Source: a virus
Lineage: Duplodnaviria; Heunggongvirae; Uroviricota; Caudoviricetes
Virus record (IMG/VR): IMGVR_UViG_2617270987_000001
Length of the DNA: 5,673 nucleotides
Direction: 5' to 3' (one strand)
Shown here: in pieces, positions 1 to 5,557 of the stretch
Numbering within the stretch: the first letter of the stretch is position 1
Layout of the letters: each line of letters opens with the position of its first letter
Notes under the pieces: generated by a model
Database searches by the model: none
Seen by the model: the letters and a program-made list of their open reading frames with translations, nothing else
Told to the model about the DNA's origin: nothing
Made by a program: the position numbers and the translations under genes

Positions 1-1160
1 TCACGCTCTACAGATGGTTCGACTTCCACTTTGCATTCGGTTTTTTCGTTGTCCGGAATTGCCGTTTCCACTGCATCAGTTTCTGGTACTGGCGACGAGA
101 GAGTATCAGTTGCGCTCTGATTTCTTCCTTCATCTTCAAACACGCCCTTTGTAGTCAGGTATTCAGTAATGTATTTGTTCAGTGCCACAGGGTCTTTGTG
201 AATGTCGATCGGACGTTCACGGACAAGGCCAAAAATAGTCTGGCGGTCGTAGCGAAGGGCATCAGGCTGTTTGCGCATTGATGCCGAGATACGCTTCCAG
301 TCTTCGCGGTCGTTGTCGATAACTTCATTTTTTGCCCAGCGATGGATGCTGCCGTCAATGTTTCCGGCATCCACATCACCAGGCCAGAGAGCGTAGGCCA
401 GTTCGTCATCCAGTGTTTTCCATGTCTGCTTGTATTCGCGATGAATGGCAGCAATGACCAGGCTGATTTTTCCTGTTGAATTTTCAGTGTGTTGTTGATT
501 GACTCTGGCGCGGGCGAGATCAACAACAGACGTGTATTTTCCGGTTTCCTTGCGTTCACCTTCGCGACGTTTTTTCCAGATGCGCATCTCTGCCTGAATT
601 TCGGGCCATTTGGCACCAGGCTTACATTTATGCTTAACCCACCCGATGGCATGCAGCTTAAGCTCCGGATACATGGCGTTAACATCTGGCATTTTCATCA
701 ACGCTTCAACGATATGTCCGTCGAATGTTGCCATGTCTTCCTGCAACAATTCCTGTGCGCTAATAACCATATCAACGGTGATGTTTTCACATGTGTCGAA
801 CTTAACCATGACAGCGTTCTGTACTTCAGGGGCCAGCTTGTCAAAAGTGACGTTCATCGGATCGGATTCAGTCTCAATCGGGACAAAGGAAGCAGACTCC
901 TCATCCCAGCGGTTTTCCTGCATATATTCAGCATCCCAGGAATCGAGGGCAGGGCGGGGTATACCGGGTTTATCCTCGCAGACAAGAAATTTATAAGCGC
1001 AGTCCTGAGCAGCCGGATAATGTTCCAGGAATTGCCAGTGAAATTTTGCGCGGGCGCGACGTTCATCACCGGCTTCAATGGCAGTGGCTACAGCGACGGC
1101 ACCTTCTTCCTTTATTGCCTGTTCGTCCGGAATGGCGGCGCAAATAAAGACTTTACTCAT
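1..1160 (-). CDS. Large hypothetical early-operon protein, N-terminal 386 codons only (3' end beyond left edge); RecE-like by position only
   Basis: I translated the minus strand from ATG 1160 by hand: the frame stays open to position 3 with no stop. GAGGT lies 8 nt upstream of the ATG. N-terminus MSKVFICAAIPDEQAIKEEGAVAVATAIEAGDE, acidic. Absent from the supplied track, presumably because it has no in-window stop. No family recognised. Confidence 0.8.
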   Translation of the reverse strand, partial: MSKVFICAAIPDEQAIKEEGAVAVATAIEAGDERRARAKFHWQFLEHYPAAQDCAYKFLVCEDKPGIPRPALDSWDAEYMQENRWDEESASFVPIETESDPMNVTFDKLAPEVQNAVMVKFDTCENITVDMVISAQELLQEDMATFDGHIVEALMKMPDVNAMYPELKLHAIGWVKHKCKPGAKWPEIQAEMRIWKKRREGERKETGKYTSVVDLARARVNQQHTENSTGKISLVIAAIHREYKQTWKTLDDELAYALWPGDVDAGNIDGSIHRWAKNEVIDNDREDWKRISASMRKQPDALRYDRQTIFGLVRERPIDIHKDPVALNKYITEYLTTKGVFEDEGRNQSATDTLSSPVPETDAVETAIPDNEKTECKVEVEPSVER

Positions 1161-1239
1161 TTTGTTTTACCTCATTACAGATTTAAGGGTGAACAAATCC
1201 CTGCCATTGCTGGCATATAAAAATGAAACTGGATATTAA

Positions 1240-1443
1240 TTACGGCGCTGTTTTTAATCCTGCCGGGATTTCGTTATTGTCCATGTGAATAACTTTATCG
1301 TCCGGATAACAGTTGCCGGGAATTTTCTGTTCCGCTGCGGCAGCCATGCATTCTTTCATTGAGTTGTACATGCCGGTGATTGCATCAAGCGACTCACCAG
1401 TATTGAGATGTACAGTCAGAATGAGTACGAATAATGTGTTCAT
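1240..1443 (-). CDS. Small hypothetical protein (67 aa) with N-terminal hydrophobic segment (possible signal peptide or membrane anchor) and two Cys
   Basis: ATG at 1443 preceded by GGAGAG. Its start overlaps the stop of the upstream gene as ATGA (1440-1443), typical translational coupling. N-terminus MNTLFVLILTVHLNTG is hydrophobic. The track starts it at a GTG two codons upstream. Confidence 0.6.
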   Translation of the reverse strand: MNTLFVLILTVHLNTGESLDAITGMYNSMKECMAAAAEQKIPGNCYPDDKVIHMDNNEIPAGLKTAP

Positions 1444-1628
1444 CGCCACTCTCCGAAAATACCGAGTTTAAGAAGGGCAATTCTGGAGAGTATGGAATTG
1501 TCATTCAGCAGGTAGGGTTCATATTTTCTCATATTGATTGCATCCTCGGTGAAATCCCTGTTACTGAGCAGAACACCAATATTAAAGCACCCGTCAGACG
1601 TATTAACGTTTGGTAGTGACGTTTCCAT
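1440..1628 (-). CDS. Small hypothetical protein (62 aa)
   Basis: ATG at 1628 with GAGGA 7 nt upstream; starts 10 nt after the rha stop and overlaps the next start by 4 nt. No family recognised. Confidence 0.55.
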   Translation of the reverse strand: METSLPNVNTSDGCFNIGVLLSNRDFTEDAINMRKYEPYLLNDNSILSRIALLKLGIFGEWR

Positions 1629-1638
1629 TATCGCGTCC

Positions 1639-2196
1639 TCAACAATGAATTTTTAGCAATTGCTCCACAGTCATATTTTTAATTGCGCTCCGGTTTACAA
1701 GAGTCCATCCTTGTTTCTCCAGATAAAACCGGAAGGTATCCAGGGTGCAGACCATTGCGCCGTCAGGAACGGTTTCAGTGAATTTGATATTGCCGTGTTC
1801 GTCGAGACGGATAACCAGGGTGCGTCCGTCCCCGTGAATCATTTTGTCGGGAGACGGGGCGTTATTCTGGCGCAGTTCTGCTTCCATGCGGTCGAACTCA
1901 GCAATGTATGCCTCTTTAAATGCAGCGGCTTTTTTGCCAGTGAAGCCCATCACCAGGAAAACGAAGCCGTTTTTGGTGATTTGGTACATTGGGAGTTTGC
2001 GCCCGGTTGAGTCGGTGTATTCGCTCGACACAAAATTGTGCTCAGTGAATTTTGCTGAACAGTCCAGATTGCGAATTTTATCCAACACTCGTTCGTGGCG
2101 TTTGCCAAAGAACTCGGCGATCGCAACAGACGTAGTGACAGCGCGACCATTTTCGATGGTTACGTCAGGGTGAGAAAGGGTAAGGATAGTAGCCAT
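1639..2196 (-). CDS. rha: Phage regulatory protein Rha (Rha-family N-terminal domain), 185 aa
   Basis: Sequence from MATILTLSHPDVTIENGRAVTTSVAIAEFFGKRHERVLDKIRNL ... GFVFLVMGFTGKKAAAFKEAYIAEFDRME matches the conserved Rha-domain pattern as I recall it. ATG 2196 has GGAGG 8 nt upstream. The track ORF runs a further 99 codons upstream to 2493, but those codons are G/R/P-rich and contain a promoter and hairpin, so I take 2196 as the start. Confidence 0.85.
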   Translation of the reverse strand: MATILTLSHPDVTIENGRAVTTSVAIAEFFGKRHERVLDKIRNLDCSAKFTEHNFVSSEYTDSTGRKLPMYQITKNGFVFLVMGFTGKKAAAFKEAYIAEFDRMEAELRQNNAPSPDKMIHGDGRTLVIRLDEHGNIKFTETVPDGAMVCTLDTFRFYLEKQGWTLVNRSAIKNMTVEQLLKIHC

Positions 2197-2365
2197 GATG
2201 GCAGCCTCCGCGATGAATTTGATTAACTCACCACCGAGGTTTTCCACGACCATAAGGGTGGTGAGACGTACAGGGGTGGAAATACCGGTCATCACGGAAC
2301 CCGGCCAGCCTTGCGGCTGCCCTGCACGCCCCACCATAATGCGAATGTGGCTGTGCTTAACGCAT

Positions 2366-2388
2366 AAAAAAACCGCCTGAGCGCGGTT
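2366..2388 (-). terminator. Candidate intrinsic terminator (short GC stem plus U7) on the minus strand
   Basis: Minus strand reads AACCGC-GCUCAG-GCGGUU followed by a run of seven U (plus 2366-2372 is AAAAAAA). The stem is only about 6 bp including two A-U pairs, so it is weak. Confidence 0.35.
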
Positions 2389-2448
2389 ATGCGCCGTGAA
2401 TGATTTCGGGTTTCCACGCCCGGCACCCGTTTTATGAGGTGCAGGTGC

Positions 2449-2477
2449 ACTATAATTCCACCCGTTCTGGTTTTCAA
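2449..2477 (-). promoter_or_regulatory. Sigma70-like promoter on minus strand: TTGAAA, 17-nt spacer, TATAGT
   Basis: Read base by base on the minus strand: -35 TTGAAA (2477-2472), spacer ACCAGAACGGGTGGAAT (17 nt), -10 TATAGT (2454-2449). Predicted start near 2442, about 77 nt upstream of the end of the U-run. Confidence 0.45.
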
Positions 2478-2675
2478 TAGCTACATTCAACATTTTCTCT
2501 ACCTTTCATCACCTAAGTGAACTTTGTGATGCGGTGCCTGGTGCCTCCAGGTGACATTAACCAGTTAACAATTAACGCCGGATGATTCACCCATAACACT
2601 TGTGTTTTTAACTGTTCTGCGTGCGCTGAGCCGCATTCACCGCATCACGAAATTCACTTTTTACTTCATAGACCG

Positions 2676-2684
2676 TGATATGAT
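2676..2684 (+). promoter_or_regulatory. Candidate extended -10 promoter (TGaTATGAT) for the DUF1883-like gene
   Basis: TG at 2676-2677, one base, then TATGAT at 2679-2684, about 30 nt upstream of ATG 2714. No convincing -35. Confidence 0.3.
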
Positions 2685-2713
2685 TTAGCTTTCCACAGTA
2701 AAAAGGAGTGTTT

Positions 2714-2977
2714 ATGTCCCATATACATAGTCGTGAACACATGAATGATGGTGACCTTGTCAGGGTTCAATGTTCACACCAGATTAATGTTTTATTAATG
2801 GATGATTCAAATTACCAGGCTTTCAAGCGGGGCGGGCGTTTTACCTATTACGGCGGTTTCTATGAACGATTCCCTGCCAATATTACCGTGCCCCACTCGG
2901 GTTACTGGAATGTTGTATTAGCACTCCCTCCCGGTCATCGAGCCAATATCAGATACTCCATTAACGTTATCAGATAG
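2714..2977 (+). CDS. DUF1883-like small protein (87 aa), function unknown
   Basis: ATG 2714 with AGGAG at 2704-2708. The sequence GDLVRVQCSHQINVLLMDDSNYQAFKRGGRFTYYGGFYERFPANITVPHSGYWNVVLALPPGHRANIRYSINVI fits the conserved DUF1883 pattern as I remember it (V.V..... NV.LMD..N...Y..G....Y.GG.......VP..G.W.VV). Opposite strand to its neighbours; GC about 44 percent by hand count. Confidence 0.75.
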   Translation: MSHIHSREHMNDGDLVRVQCSHQINVLLMDDSNYQAFKRGGRFTYYGGFYERFPANITVPHSGYWNVVLALPPGHRANIRYSINVIR

Positions 2978-3139
2978 CAGAATTTGGCTTGTCGCCTGAG
3001 TTAATGCACTTGCAAGGGCGGTAATGATTTTTTGTTGAGTACCGTCCTTTATAAAAGTCATATTCATTATGTGTTTCTGGCTGACGGTATCGTATGACCA
3101 GAGCAGCTTATTATTCCCGTCTGTGCATTGAACTATCAT
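2918..3139 (-). CDS. Small early protein, 73 aa, KilR-like by size and position (unverified)
   Basis: ATG 3139 with GGAGG 4 nt upstream (short spacer); the track extends it to a TTG at 3214. Protein MIVQCTDGNNKLLWSYDTVSQKH... Length matches my recollection of Rac KilR (73 aa) and the gene sits between the small genes and rha; similarity not verified. Confidence 0.55.
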   Translation of the reverse strand: MIVQCTDGNNKLLWSYDTVSQKHIMNMTFIKDGTQQKIITALASALTQATSQILLSDNVNGVSDIGSMTGREC

Positions 3140-3181
3140 TTTTCCTCCGGTTAGACCCCATATATCTATAGCAGTATGAGT

Positions 3182-3261
3182 TATGGCGGGGTTGTCACTT
3201 AAGCGTATGGTCAACCTGACAACCCGGTGTCCTCAACGGGGGAAGGAATAACCCCGCCATA
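3182..3261. repeat. Nested inverted repeats: 12-bp perfect IR TATGGCGGGGTT / AACCCCGCCATA enclosing inner IR GGTTGTCA / TGACAACC
   Basis: Indexed directly: 3182-3193 TATGGCGGGGTT and 3250-3261 AACCCCGCCATA are exact reverse complements; 3190-3197 GGTTGTCA and 3217-3224 TGACAACC likewise. Confidence 0.5.
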
Positions 3262-3499
3262 CTTACCGCCGCGCCATTTCGCGGAGTGCCACAACCGGAA
3301 GCGCACGGTCGAAGAAATTAACGACAAGCCTCATAGGTGAAGGCCTTCGCCGTACGCTTTCGTGTTATGCCCTGACTTTTCAGGGAAATATCCTTTCAGT
3401 AAACTGTCAGTGCCGGATTCTTATCCGTGTCCGGCGCACGACCACACGTAGCCCCGTATTGGTCTCCATTTCTAACCCAGAACCTAAATGGAGGATAAA

Positions 3500-3784
3500 A
3501 TGGCAAAATTTACAGTCAGGATCGAACTTCGCGATTCCAGTTCCGCTGATTACGATAAGCTTCATGAACGAATGGAAGCAAAGGGATTCTCCAGAACGAT
3601 TACAACCTCTTTAGGGAACACCTACCGTCTTCCTAATGCCGAATATATATATTCAAGCAAGAATGAAGACAAAGAATCTGTTGCTGACCTTGCTGAATCA
3701 GTGGCCTCAAAAGTTAAGAAAAATCCCGGTGTTCTTGTTACCGAATCTAATGGGCGCTATGTAAAAAACTTAGATGATGCTTAA
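3500..3784 (+). CDS. Hypothetical small protein (94 aa), unrecognised family, plus-strand insert at the position sieB occupies in Rac
   Basis: ATG 3500 with GGAGG at 3490-3494 and a 5-nt spacer; the track's upstream ATG 3488 has no RBS. Protein MAKFTVRIELRDSSSADYDKLHERMEAKGFSRTITTSLGNTYRLPNAEYIY... Stop overlaps the stop of the convergent 48-aa gene by 4 nt. Visibly AT-rich. Confidence 0.8.
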   Translation: MAKFTVRIELRDSSSADYDKLHERMEAKGFSRTITTSLGNTYRLPNAEYIYSSKNEDKESVADLAESVASKVKKNPGVLVTESNGRYVKNLDDA

Positions 3785-3927
3785 CCTTCATCATCACGAC
3801 CTGACTCAATAGCGTACAATGCCAGCCAGATGCGGGCTTCAGTGCCTGCATTTGGTTCCAGTTGCTGGAGGCGTTTTGCATCCTCCAGAAGCAGAGCGAT
3901 AACGTGTTTTAATTCTGTTTCGTTCAT
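3781..3927 (-). CDS. Tiny early protein (48 aa), YdaG/YdaF-class by size and position
   Basis: Translated by hand: MNETELKHVIALLLEDAKRLQQLEPNAGTEARIWLALYAIESGRDDEG. ATG 3927 with AGGTG 7 nt upstream; starts 1 nt after the stop of the 51-aa gene. Below the track's length cutoff. Confidence 0.6.
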   Translation of the reverse strand: MNETELKHVIALLLEDAKRLQQLEPNAGTEARIWLALYAIESGRDDEG

Positions 3928-3928
3928 T

Positions 3929-4084
3929 TTATTCACCTGAATGTCTTACCAACCAACGACGCGCGCCAGATTCGGTTTTAAACGTTTTGCTTTTGGTATA
4001 CGTCATCGCGGTGAACGTTCCGTCCTGGTTGGGAAACACGCCGTATACCAGAGATTCGTTGTTGCCAAGATCGATAGTATCCAT
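3929..4084 (-). CDS. Tiny early protein (51 aa), first gene of the leftward operon; YdaF/YdaG-class by size and position
   Basis: ATG 4084 with GAGG 5 nt upstream; protein MDTIDLGNNESLVYGVFPNQDGTFTAMTYTKSKTFKTESGARRWLVRHSGE. An in-frame upstream ATG at 4162 (GAGG 9 nt upstream) would give 77 aa; I cannot tell which is used. Confidence 0.6.
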   Translation of the reverse strand: MDTIDLGNNESLVYGVFPNQDGTFTAMTYTKSKTFKTESGARRWLVRHSGE

Positions 4085-4263
4085 GTTGACCTCATTTCCC
4101 CTTAACGCCGGGGTAGCGGAACAAAAACCTGCTGCATAGTTAAAGTTGAACCCTGCCGTCATGTTCTTACGCCTCGGGCTGGCTACTTAACCCCTGACCA
4201 CTGCCTGGTAACTCAAAGTATTGCCCTGCATTCTGTGGGGCGGGGTGGGTTGGTATGAAAAGA

Positions 4264-4346: not shown

Positions 4347-4766
4347 CTATGATGCGTTTTGTGCTTTCTTTTTACGGATTTCTTCGTAGATCATATTGTA
4401 ATACTGTTTTTTCTCTTCAAGAGTTTTTAATAATTTATCCGCTTCACTTTCTGGCAGTTCGTCTAAGAGATCTAAAAAAATACGTTGTCGTGGCGTTAGA
4501 ACCCTTGTTTCATAACTGGAGGCTGTGTTCGTTGATGATGAAACGATACCATCCATCCATCCCCGGGGTAACCCAAAGGACTCTTCGATAATCTCCACCA
4601 TATCATCAGCGATCCGTTTTTTTCCCTTTTTCCCCTCTGGGTACAACATTCTTGATACATAAGAAGGCTCGCGCCCGATCTTTCTGGCCACGTTAACCGC
4701 TTTACCATCGCATTTCTCATCACGAATTTTGATGAGTTGCTGTCGTCTAAATTCATATTTGTCCAT
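4347..4766 (-). CDS. Prophage repressor, cI/RacR-like HTH protein (139 aa), no peptidase domain evident
   Basis: HTH-like segment AVNVARKIGREPSYVSRML near the N-terminus. Located between the two operator clusters and divergent from the Cro-like gene. No SD upstream of ATG 4766. Confidence 0.8.
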   Translation of the reverse strand: MDKYEFRRQQLIKIRDEKCDGKAVNVARKIGREPSYVSRMLYPEGKKGKKRIADDMVEIIEESFGLPRGWMDGIVSSSTNTASSYETRVLTPRQRIFLDLLDELPESEADKLLKTLEEKKQYYNMIYEEIRKKKAQNAS

Positions 4767-4841
4767 AGGTAAATAATAGATGCGATTACTGCAAGGTAAA
4801 CAACCTGTGGGTATTGACTTTTGTTTACCTGTAGGTATTCT
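4760..4841. promoter_or_regulatory. OR-like region: three operator-like sites with divergent PR-like and PRM-like promoters
   Basis: TACCTGTAGGTA (4826-4837), AACCTGTGGGTA (4802-4813, centres 24 bp apart) and a weaker TGTCCATAGGTA (4760-4771) over the repressor start. Plus-strand promoter TTGACT (4814-4819), 16 nt, TATTCT (4836-4841). Minus-strand -10 TATTAT (4778-4773) lies 6 nt before the repressor ATG. Confidence 0.5.
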
Positions 4842-4866
4842 TTGCTGTGTTTACTAAGGAGTAGCT

Positions 4867-5148
4867 ATGGAAGAATTAAGAATATTTCTCAATTCTCTTT
4901 CGTCAGATGAACAGCGTATGTTTGCATGCGAGTGTGGTACCAGCATCGGTTATCTAAGAAAGGCATTGAGTAAAGGTCAAGTGTTAGGGGCATCGTTATG
5001 TGTCCTTATTGAGCGAGCCAGTAATGGTGAAGTTACACGTCAGCAACTAAGGCCTTTTGATTGGATGAATATTTGGCCCGAGCTGGAAGATACCAAAACG
5101 TTAACACAACCACTTTCTAGGAGCTTGATTCATGAAAATCAAGCATGA
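4867..5148 (+). CDS. ydaS: Cro-like HTH regulator of the YdaS family (93 aa)
   Basis: AAGGAG at 4856-4861, 5-nt spacer, ATG 4867. First rightward gene, divergent from the repressor. The FACECGTSIGYLRKALSKGQ ... LRPFDW pattern resembles YdaS/Cro-like proteins. Overlaps the next gene by 17 nt. Confidence 0.8.
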   Translation: MEELRIFLNSLSSDEQRMFACECGTSIGYLRKALSKGQVLGASLCVLIERASNGEVTRQQLRPFDWMNIWPELEDTKTLTQPLSRSLIHENQA

Positions 5149-5557
5149 ACACATCCGCATGGCGATGAATGCCTGGGCGCGTCCTGATGGCGAAAAAGTT
5201 CCAGCAGCTGGAATAACCCAGGCTTATTTTGAGTTGGGTATGACGTTTCCTGAACTGTATGACGACAGCCATCCGGAAGCCCTGGCTCGCAATACCCAGA
5301 AAATTTTCCGCTGGGTAGAGAAAGACACCTCTGATGCAGTTGAAAAAATTCAGGCGTTGTTACCAGCGATCGAAAAGGCAATGCCACCTTTGCTGGTGGC
5401 CAGAATGCGCAGCCACAGTTCAGCTTATTTTCGGGAGCTGGTGGAGACGCGGGAGCGACTGGTGAGAGACGCTGATGATTTTGTCGCAGTGGCAATCGCC
5501 GGTTTCAATCAGATGAACCGTGGTGGCCCGGCAGGAAATGCTGTGGCAGTACATTGA
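5132..5557 (+). CDS. ydaT: YdaT-family protein (141 aa)
   Basis: AGGAG at 5119-5123, ATG 5132. Begins MKIKHEHI and ends VH, as I recall for Rac YdaT; immediately follows and overlaps the ydaS-like gene. Confidence 0.8.
   Translation: MKIKHEHIRMAMNAWARPDGEKVPAAGITQAYFELGMTFPELYDDSHPEALARNTQKIFRWVEKDTSDAVEKIQALLPAIEKAMPPLLVARMRSHSSAYFRELVETRERLVRDADDFVAVAIAGFNQMNRGGPAGNAVAVH

Follow-up and report, generated by a model that had tools for sequence, protein, structure and literature searches.

A prophage DUF1883 gene is paired with a convergent, overlapping partner gene in a mobile two-gene cassette

DUF1883 (Pfam PF08980) is a protein family with no assigned function in Pfam, and our literature searches on PF08980 and on its solved member Atu1913 (PDB 2b1y) returned no papers. 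Bacterial TIR domains also frequently carry it at their N terminus, where it is a predominant partner (PMC9153377), and one stand-alone member, MrpB of Clostridioides difficile, has now been studied (bioRxiv 10.1101/2025.08.20.671228). Here, we analyzed a 5,673-nt stretch of DNA from a Caudoviricetes virus (IMG/VR record IMGVR_UViG_2617270987_000001; the whole stretch is referred to as the window), in which a preliminary description, made from the sequence letters, had singled out a DUF1883 gene (2714-2977, plus strand) as a single gene of possible lysogenic-conversion or exclusion function. The gene itself is an already annotated member of a known family; what is new is an un-annotated partner gene that overlaps it and the cassette architecture that the two genes form. 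The cassette, with its convergent overlap, is mobile and mostly prophage-borne, and within it DUF1883 lies antisense to phage operons.

MrpB is an 87-amino-acid (aa) DUF1883 protein that acts only with the adjacent 81-aa MrpA; when MrpA and MrpB are expressed, cells elongate and septa become asymmetric or misplaced (bioRxiv 10.1101/2025.08.20.671228). According to the same study, MrpA binds MinD, MrpB pulls down MrpA, and the mrpAB genes (CDR20291_1689/1690) lie on the chromosome, occur only in C. difficile, and are under the control of CmrT. With MrpB studied, a few functional data now exist for the DUF1883 family. The window protein is 36% identical to MrpB over 87 aa (E=3e-20; C. difficile locus L074). 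Both systems consist of a stand-alone DUF1883 protein plus an adjacent small protein, MrpA is built of beta strands with a helix at the C terminus, and both Mrp proteins are cytoplasmic. However, mrpAB is co-directional and co-transcribed, neither phage-borne nor convergent, whereas the partner in the window lies downstream on the opposite strand, overlaps the DUF1883 gene, and is unrelated to MrpA in sequence.

Two further comparisons concern the domain itself. The window protein resembles Atu1913 and PF08980 in being a single-domain beta-sandwich of ~87 aa, but the family description names neither a convergent partner nor a prophage association. We also found a complete DUF1883-TIR fusion in an IMG/VR provirus (L165, 3953-4768, plus strand), and fragments of other such fusions were seen. 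These fusions share with the window gene the N-terminal domain family and a proviral occurrence, and they point to a role of the domain in biological conflict (PMC9153377). In contrast, the window protein has no TIR domain, and the one fusion locus examined (L165) has no convergent partner downstream.

Among prophage morons and self-immune exclusion systems, HK97 gp15 (located after the tape-measure gene), SieB of lambda and P22 with Esc, and BstA with aba resemble the cassette in being small, variable accessory units with their own promoter in similar slots (behind the tape-measure gene or next to the repressor). The resemblance extends to the logic proposed below, in which a factor expressed in the lysogen is matched by a cognate phage antidote. 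The HK97 gp15, SieB, and BstA-type factors are, however, membrane proteins or large nucleases with no sequence or fold relationship to the cassette, and to our knowledge none of these systems is built as two convergent, overlapping protein genes.

The partner open reading frame (ORF; 2918-3139, minus strand) encodes 73 aa with a core of ~59-60 aa. It is convergent with the DUF1883 gene, shares 60 nt of coding sequence with it at the two 3' ends (2918-2977), and has a ribosome-binding site, GGAGG, 4 nt ahead of its ATG. The protein matches phrog_21096 (E=4e-15), and W14 and L42 are invariant in the partner family alignment (A2). A hidden Markov model (HMM) was built from 30 diverse partners, with the consensus MxVxIxxxxGxxIWxR...GxTSxxYxxDGTQQxIIxALExALxQAxG. 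Substitutions among partners are biased toward the third codon position (4453/3675/6327 differences at positions 1/2/3), and the partner frame is the sole one open throughout all 21 of the 21 loci tested. On this sequence evidence, the partner is a real, conserved coding gene.

The AlphaFold2 model of the partner (pLDDT 76) consists of three strands followed by a long helix and a C-terminal tail with a pLDDT of <50. This tail (about 13-14 residues, 60-73) is predicted to be disordered and is the antisense reading of the conserved DUF1883 C terminus. Partners are acidic (median isoelectric point [pI] 4.8, vs 8.9 for DUF1883 proteins), which makes the two proteins complementary in charge. No relative of the partner was found in Pfam, PDB, or fold searches, and its profile matches only 19 among 5.8 billion proteins, because the ORF is seldom called by gene callers. 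The census of partners was accordingly taken by tblastn and then with the HMM on six-frame translations; a word-indexed protein search had given 3, and then 19, proteins. In RefSeq, the partner is absent from the counterpart prophage of Escherichia coli E24377A and appears elsewhere as a 49-aa fragment (L003 4279-4428, WP_236927369.1).

With the partner HMM, a partner was found opposite DUF1883 at the same place in 30 of 61 species-representative genomes, the end of its core falling -14 to +19 nt from the end of the DUF1883 domain. These 30 genomes cover Enterobacterales, Pseudomonas, Rhizobiales, Acidobacteriota, Leptospirales, Bacteroidota, and Bdellovibrio. Among evaluable IMG/VR viral contigs, 78 of 79 carry the partner. 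Every partner-positive locus shows the overlap, which measures 21 nt in 42 loci, 24 nt in 25 loci, and at most 117 nt; overlaps of 54-60 nt, that of the window included, are a minority class. The DUF1883 gene of Yersinia prophages is a neighbor of cI and shares a 21-nt overlap with a convergent 62-aa ORF, and in a Klebsiella prophage the pair sits amid tail genes with a 24-nt overlap; the partner proteins of these prophages and of the window are clearly homologous. The linkage also holds in reverse, as each partner homologue that was looked up is convergent with, and overlaps, a PF08980 gene. In a neighbor-joining tree of DUF1883 proteins, partner-positive and partner-negative loci are intermixed, so the pairing is ancestral to the DUF1883 subfamily of the window and has been repeatedly lost or replaced. 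Judged by this distribution, the two genes have been paired since ancient times, and phage copies of DUF1883 almost always have the partner. The view that the gene stands alone must therefore be abandoned.

Stand-alone DUF1883 genes without the partner are often found beside a divergent pair, or fusion, of an Xre helix-turn-helix protein and an ImmA/IrrE (Peptidase_M78) protein. This arrangement was seen at nine loci (L023, L037, L046, L047, L050, L062, L065, L066, and L017) and is divergent in eight of them; L017 and L023 do carry the partner, and in L017 the gene is on the same strand. It seems that DUF1883 recruits various small partners, and the recurring theme is a DUF1883 binding module that works with a small neighboring protein or with an effector fused to it, frequently on mobile elements or in settings of biological conflict. 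Separately, L018 and L028 contain an operon of SH3, RNase_T, and DUF1883 genes. In other lineages, different conserved small ORFs follow DUF1883 directly in the same direction, at L047 (6204-6503, plus strand), L062 (2257-2502, plus strand), L065 (6268-6489, plus strand), and L164 (360-605, plus strand); examples are an ORF containing HQPGLDGRHRDVDGRISEKHGNTRVDTLR in Acetobacteraceae and a cysteine-rich 81-aa ORF on a 7.4-kb Aeromonas plasmid, for which homology to the partner was rejected.

The DUF1883 membership proposed in the preliminary description was confirmed against the Pfam profile (E=1.1e-24; score of 86.7 bits, gathering threshold 26; residues 3-87 aligned to positions 3-87 of the 89-position profile), and the protein also matches phrog_9211. 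Its homology to Atu1913 (E=4e-6) likewise agrees with a small beta-sandwich fold. RefSeq labels the gene 'DUF1883 domain-containing protein' and, in E24377A, gives it a coding sequence of 78 aa from an internal ATG (L002 6102-6338, WP_235834889.1). Two features favor the start that gives 87 aa, namely the conservation of the N terminus, in which H5 is invariant and R7 nearly so, and the ribosome-binding site; inspection of the sequence shows the strong Shine-Dalgarno element that had been noted earlier, AAGGAG (2703-2708, plus strand), 5 nt ahead of the ATG at 2714. The family is large, with 933 clusters at 50% identity (E<1e-3). An apparent run of 14 DUF1883 stretches in one 1,110-aa protein (P0100) was discarded as a Sushi-repeat false positive.

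The window protein is basic (pI 9.4) and predicted to be cytoplasmic; like DUF1883 proteins generally, it belongs to a basic family for which neither a signal peptide nor a membrane segment is predicted. DUF1883 is its only domain, and the protein ends at residue 87 with no C-terminal TIR or other effector domain. As modeled, DUF1883 is a basic beta-sandwich binding module. Neither the DUF1883 protein nor the partner ORF matched a defense system in a PADLOC-DB v2 scan, an NCBIfam scan gave nothing for either, and neither matches a toxin-antitoxin family in Pfam, NCBIfam, or PADLOC.

The limits of the cassette (2661-3185, no strand, ~525 bp) were taken from a blastn comparison of the window with L001, a near-identical prophage that lacks the cassette and has 80 unrelated bp where it sits. 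In E. coli A34, homology to the window starts exactly at the extended -10 element of the DUF1883 gene, and E. coli strains 08-00022 and A34 carry the same module with different flanks. The cassette has a GC content of 41%, compared with 46.5% for the window; the DUF1883 gene, at 43.9%, is AT-richer than its left (48.2%) and right (54%) flanks, in line with the ~44% counted earlier. The cassette is thus a discrete presence/absence unit of deviating base composition, as morons are. The DUF1883 gene is carried by 8 of 5,426 complete E. coli genomes, and this rarity, together with the insertion or deletion among near-identical prophages, supports a moron-like distribution; a moron-type reading of the DUF1883 gene appears reasonable.

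The commonest phage slot of the cassette is directly after the tape-measure gene (Klebsiella and many viral contigs), and others are beside the repressor or cI gene (Yersinia) and at the terminase/lysis junction (Pseudomonas phage U8). The gene families near partner-positive loci are mainly terminase, tape-measure, minor-tail, holin, and repressor families. In the window, the genes flanking DUF1883 are all on the minus strand, so that its orientation against the operon stands as first described. In 57 of 80 viral loci, the genes on either side of the cassette share the strand of the partner; DUF1883 is therefore the gene that runs against the phage operon, and the partner runs along with it. 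Plasmid carriage was seen in 6 of 72,556 records (tblastn), none of enterobacterial type. Prophage L001 contains a different convergent pair (4562-4840, plus strand, 92 aa; 4800-5201, minus strand, 133 aa; 41-nt overlap) in a variable stretch that is the counterpart of window positions 3441-3925, a few hundred bases to the right of the 80-bp cassette slot. This makes the locus a possible hotspot for cargo in the form of convergent gene pairs.

The extended -10 element that had been proposed for the DUF1883 gene is TGaTATGAT (2676-2684, plus strand). A generic sigma-70 -35/-10 scan found no pair for either gene, and the element was therefore judged by comparative conservation. Of 68 non-redundant cassettes (E. 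coli, Yersinia, Serratia, Klebsiella, and Pseudomonas), 33 have TGnTAnnnT at a distance of 38-46 nt ahead of the DUF1883 start codon, vs 2.8% of background windows, and the element travels with the gene. Where the cassette occupies a tail slot, a clear extended -10 is replaced by a conserved motif resembling a hairpin, GAGGGATGGCTGATTACCTCT; it sits ~12-35 nt upstream of the DUF1883 start (L012-L014, L051, L052, L068, L070, and many viral loci) and could have a regulatory function as RNA or as DNA. Upstream of the partner, no conserved promoter was seen. In 41 of 91 cassettes, the partner start is closely preceded, on the partner strand, by a hairpin that resembles a terminator (bidirectional in 13); none was found in the window. 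By geometry, a complete DUF1883 mRNA is antisense to the 3' end of the partner, or to the whole partner gene if it ended at the hairpin, and a transcript that reads through the partner is antisense across DUF1883.

Taken together, we tentatively propose that DUF1883 is expressed in the lysogen, that the partner serves as its antagonist or cofactor during the lytic phase, and that convergent antisense transcription couples the two, a model that we hold to be somewhat less probable than its negation. With the prophage in its repressed state, the promoter of the DUF1883 gene itself would drive its transcription, and the protein would bind a cytoplasmic target of the host or of an incoming phage, leading to exclusion or to modulation of the host. 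The partner, which lacks a conserved promoter and in many cassettes lies right behind a terminator, would be made only when antiterminated phage transcription reads into it, from the leftward early operon in the window and from the late operon elsewhere. This read-through would be antisense to DUF1883 and could silence it by antisense action or transcriptional interference, while the partner protein could bind, neutralize, or redirect DUF1883, providing self-immunity or a switch for the lytic growth of the phage itself. Besides the linkage, moron-like distribution, orientation, regulatory elements, and charges described above, the proposal draws on the conflict-type context of the domain (TIR fusions, Xre/ImmA neighbors) and on the two-protein precedent of MrpA/MrpB. 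More doubtful is the further reading that the pair is a new cross-phylum, mainly phage-borne system whose overlapping, mutually antisense layout acts as a lysogeny/lysis toggle, in which DUF1883 is on in the lysogen, excluding phages or reprogramming host division, and its neutralizer is made only under antitermination; this would be a new class of self-immune exclusion or conversion module.

Several observations weigh against this proposal. About one-third of partner-positive chromosomal loci lie outside any opposite-strand operon, and the logic of a lysogeny/lysis switch is thus not general. About half of the non-viral DUF1883 loci have no partner, which indicates that DUF1883 can function alone. 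The DUF1883 promoter is a prediction from sequence, and on the plus strand of the window no terminator-like site was found after the DUF1883 gene, beyond the partner. Neither protein has a catalytic signature, so an effector activity cannot be named, and the PADLOC scan matched neither to any defense model. Finally, MrpB, the only experimental homologue, points to modulation of cell division and not to phage exclusion.

This last point leads to a different explanation, in which DUF1883 and its partner form a complex that acts on the division or shape machinery of the host (Min, divisome) as a lysogenic-conversion trait, with any role in defense optional. The full-length identity to MrpB speaks for such an MrpAB-like module, as do the need for both Mrp proteins, their effects on cell length and septum placement, the binding of MinD and the pull-down of MrpA, and the complementary charge of DUF1883 and its partner. 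In addition, the cassette lies inside the operon of the cell-division inhibitor gene dicB (1440-1628, minus strand), upstream of dicB at a distance of ~1 kb. An action on division, as in the case of DicB, is compatible with an exclusion outcome. However, most cassettes are located in tail or packaging regions away from dicB, and the dicB neighborhood is therefore probably incidental; the partner was rejected as an MrpA homologue (hhalign probability 0.2%), and convergent genes that are not co-transcribed but mutually antisense are ill-suited to stoichiometric co-expression. We consider this explanation unlikely, though less so than the other alternatives. A toxin-antitoxin or addiction module, in which a basic DUF1883 toxin and an acidic antitoxin, or the reverse, would stabilize the prophage, is improbable. 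Two very small, linked genes on mobile elements with complementary charge would fit it, toxin-antitoxin genes (TacA/GNAT, YafO) are occasional neighbors, and partner-less copies adjoin pairs of Xre and COG2856-type peptidase genes. Nevertheless, the very rare carriage on plasmids argues against stabilization of this kind, the genes are convergent rather than a co-directional, autoregulated operon as in type II systems, the beta-sandwich binding module is not a known toxin fold and has no PADLOC match, and about half of the loci have DUF1883 without the partner. MrpB alone also has no reported effect in C. difficile (bioRxiv 10.1101/2025.08.20.671228).

The abundance of stand-alone DUF1883 in phages, set beside its frequency at the N terminus of bacterial TIR proteins (PMC9153377), could also point to an anti-defense decoy, i.e., a free sensor or oligomerization domain that poisons or saturates the DUF1883-TIR sensors of the host. 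Anti-defense genes are, however, usually early lytic and co-oriented with the phage operon, whereas DUF1883 is antisense with its own predicted promoter, a lysogen-type hallmark; stand-alone copies are also frequent in non-phage chromosomal loci, and a decoy leaves no role for the conserved partner. We regard it as quite improbable. It is more improbable still that the gene is truly solitary and the antisense ORF a by-product of an open frame or of a conserved 3' untranslated region. Partner residues 60-73, predicted to be disordered, do mirror the DUF1883 C terminus, and the partner is barely annotated in protein databases. Its core of ~180 nt, however, has merely 14 nt within the DUF1883 coding region, and its protein profile persists (E ~1e-20) between phyla at whose distance DNA comparison is saturated. 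The third-position bias, the single open frame, and the ribosome-binding site of its own also argue for a gene.

The window comes from a Qin/DicB-like lambdoid prophage of E. coli, of which it represents the immunity and early-left region; over positions 1-4122, it shares 97% identity with the prophage integrated at ompW in E24377A. Its minus-strand genes encode an exonuclease, DUF1482, DicB, a Rha/Ash anti-repressor, YdfA- and YdfB-like proteins, and a DicA-like repressor; on the plus strand, cro/YdaS-like and then YdaT-like genes lie past the repressor. The DUF1883 gene is thus flanked by minus-strand genes on both sides, with rha/ant, dicB, DUF1482, and the exonuclease gene on one and the ydfA- and ydfB-like genes on the other.

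The anti-repressor gene is preceded by C4 and isrK RNAs. Rfam matches to C4 antisense RNA (2254-2341, minus strand, 81.9 bits) and isrK (2366-2442, minus strand, 67.7 bits) fall in the 5' part of ORF 1639-2493 (minus strand, 284 aa), which RefSeq names 'Rha family phage regulatory protein' and whose N terminus matches Pfam Phage_ASH. This ORF looks like a P1/Gifsy-type anti-repressor under c4/isrK control, and the true start of the protein probably lies downstream of the annotated one. Between isrK and the cassette, positions 2523-2645 (minus strand) give a sub-threshold Rfam match to STnc100 (31.9 bits, E=3e-4); the A34 counterpart is labeled 'tRNA-OTHER' in RefSeq, and ARAGORN found no tRNA there. 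This segment may be a small RNA or a tRNA-like remnant.

On the other side, the cassette directly adjoins a GC-rich (54%), non-coding segment (3176-3445) that is ~90% conserved across many lambdoid and Shiga toxin (Stx) phages without the cassette. The segment has strong predicted structure on both strands (z = -3.5 and -4.7), and no Rfam family matched it. Farther on, another gene opposes the operon (3488-3784, plus strand, 98 aa). RefSeq labels it 'type V TA antitoxin GhoS' (TA, toxin-antitoxin) in E24377A, its likeness to GhoS and YmfI is below the curated thresholds (Pfam GhoS E=8e-4; NCBIfam YmfI 51 bits, cutoff 140), and no GhoT-like gene was found near it.

DUF1883 is a large family and a common companion of TIR domains, and the partner gives its phage copies a genetically tractable two-component context. 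The partner itself represents a family of small proteins that gene callers have overlooked. If the antisense switch or the exclusion role is true, the cassette would be a new design of prophage accessory module, and an exclusion or switch function would also hint at what DUF1883-TIR sensors recognize. If, instead, the pair acts as MrpAB does, a newly described modulator of cell division would be extended to the prophages of Gram-negative bacteria.

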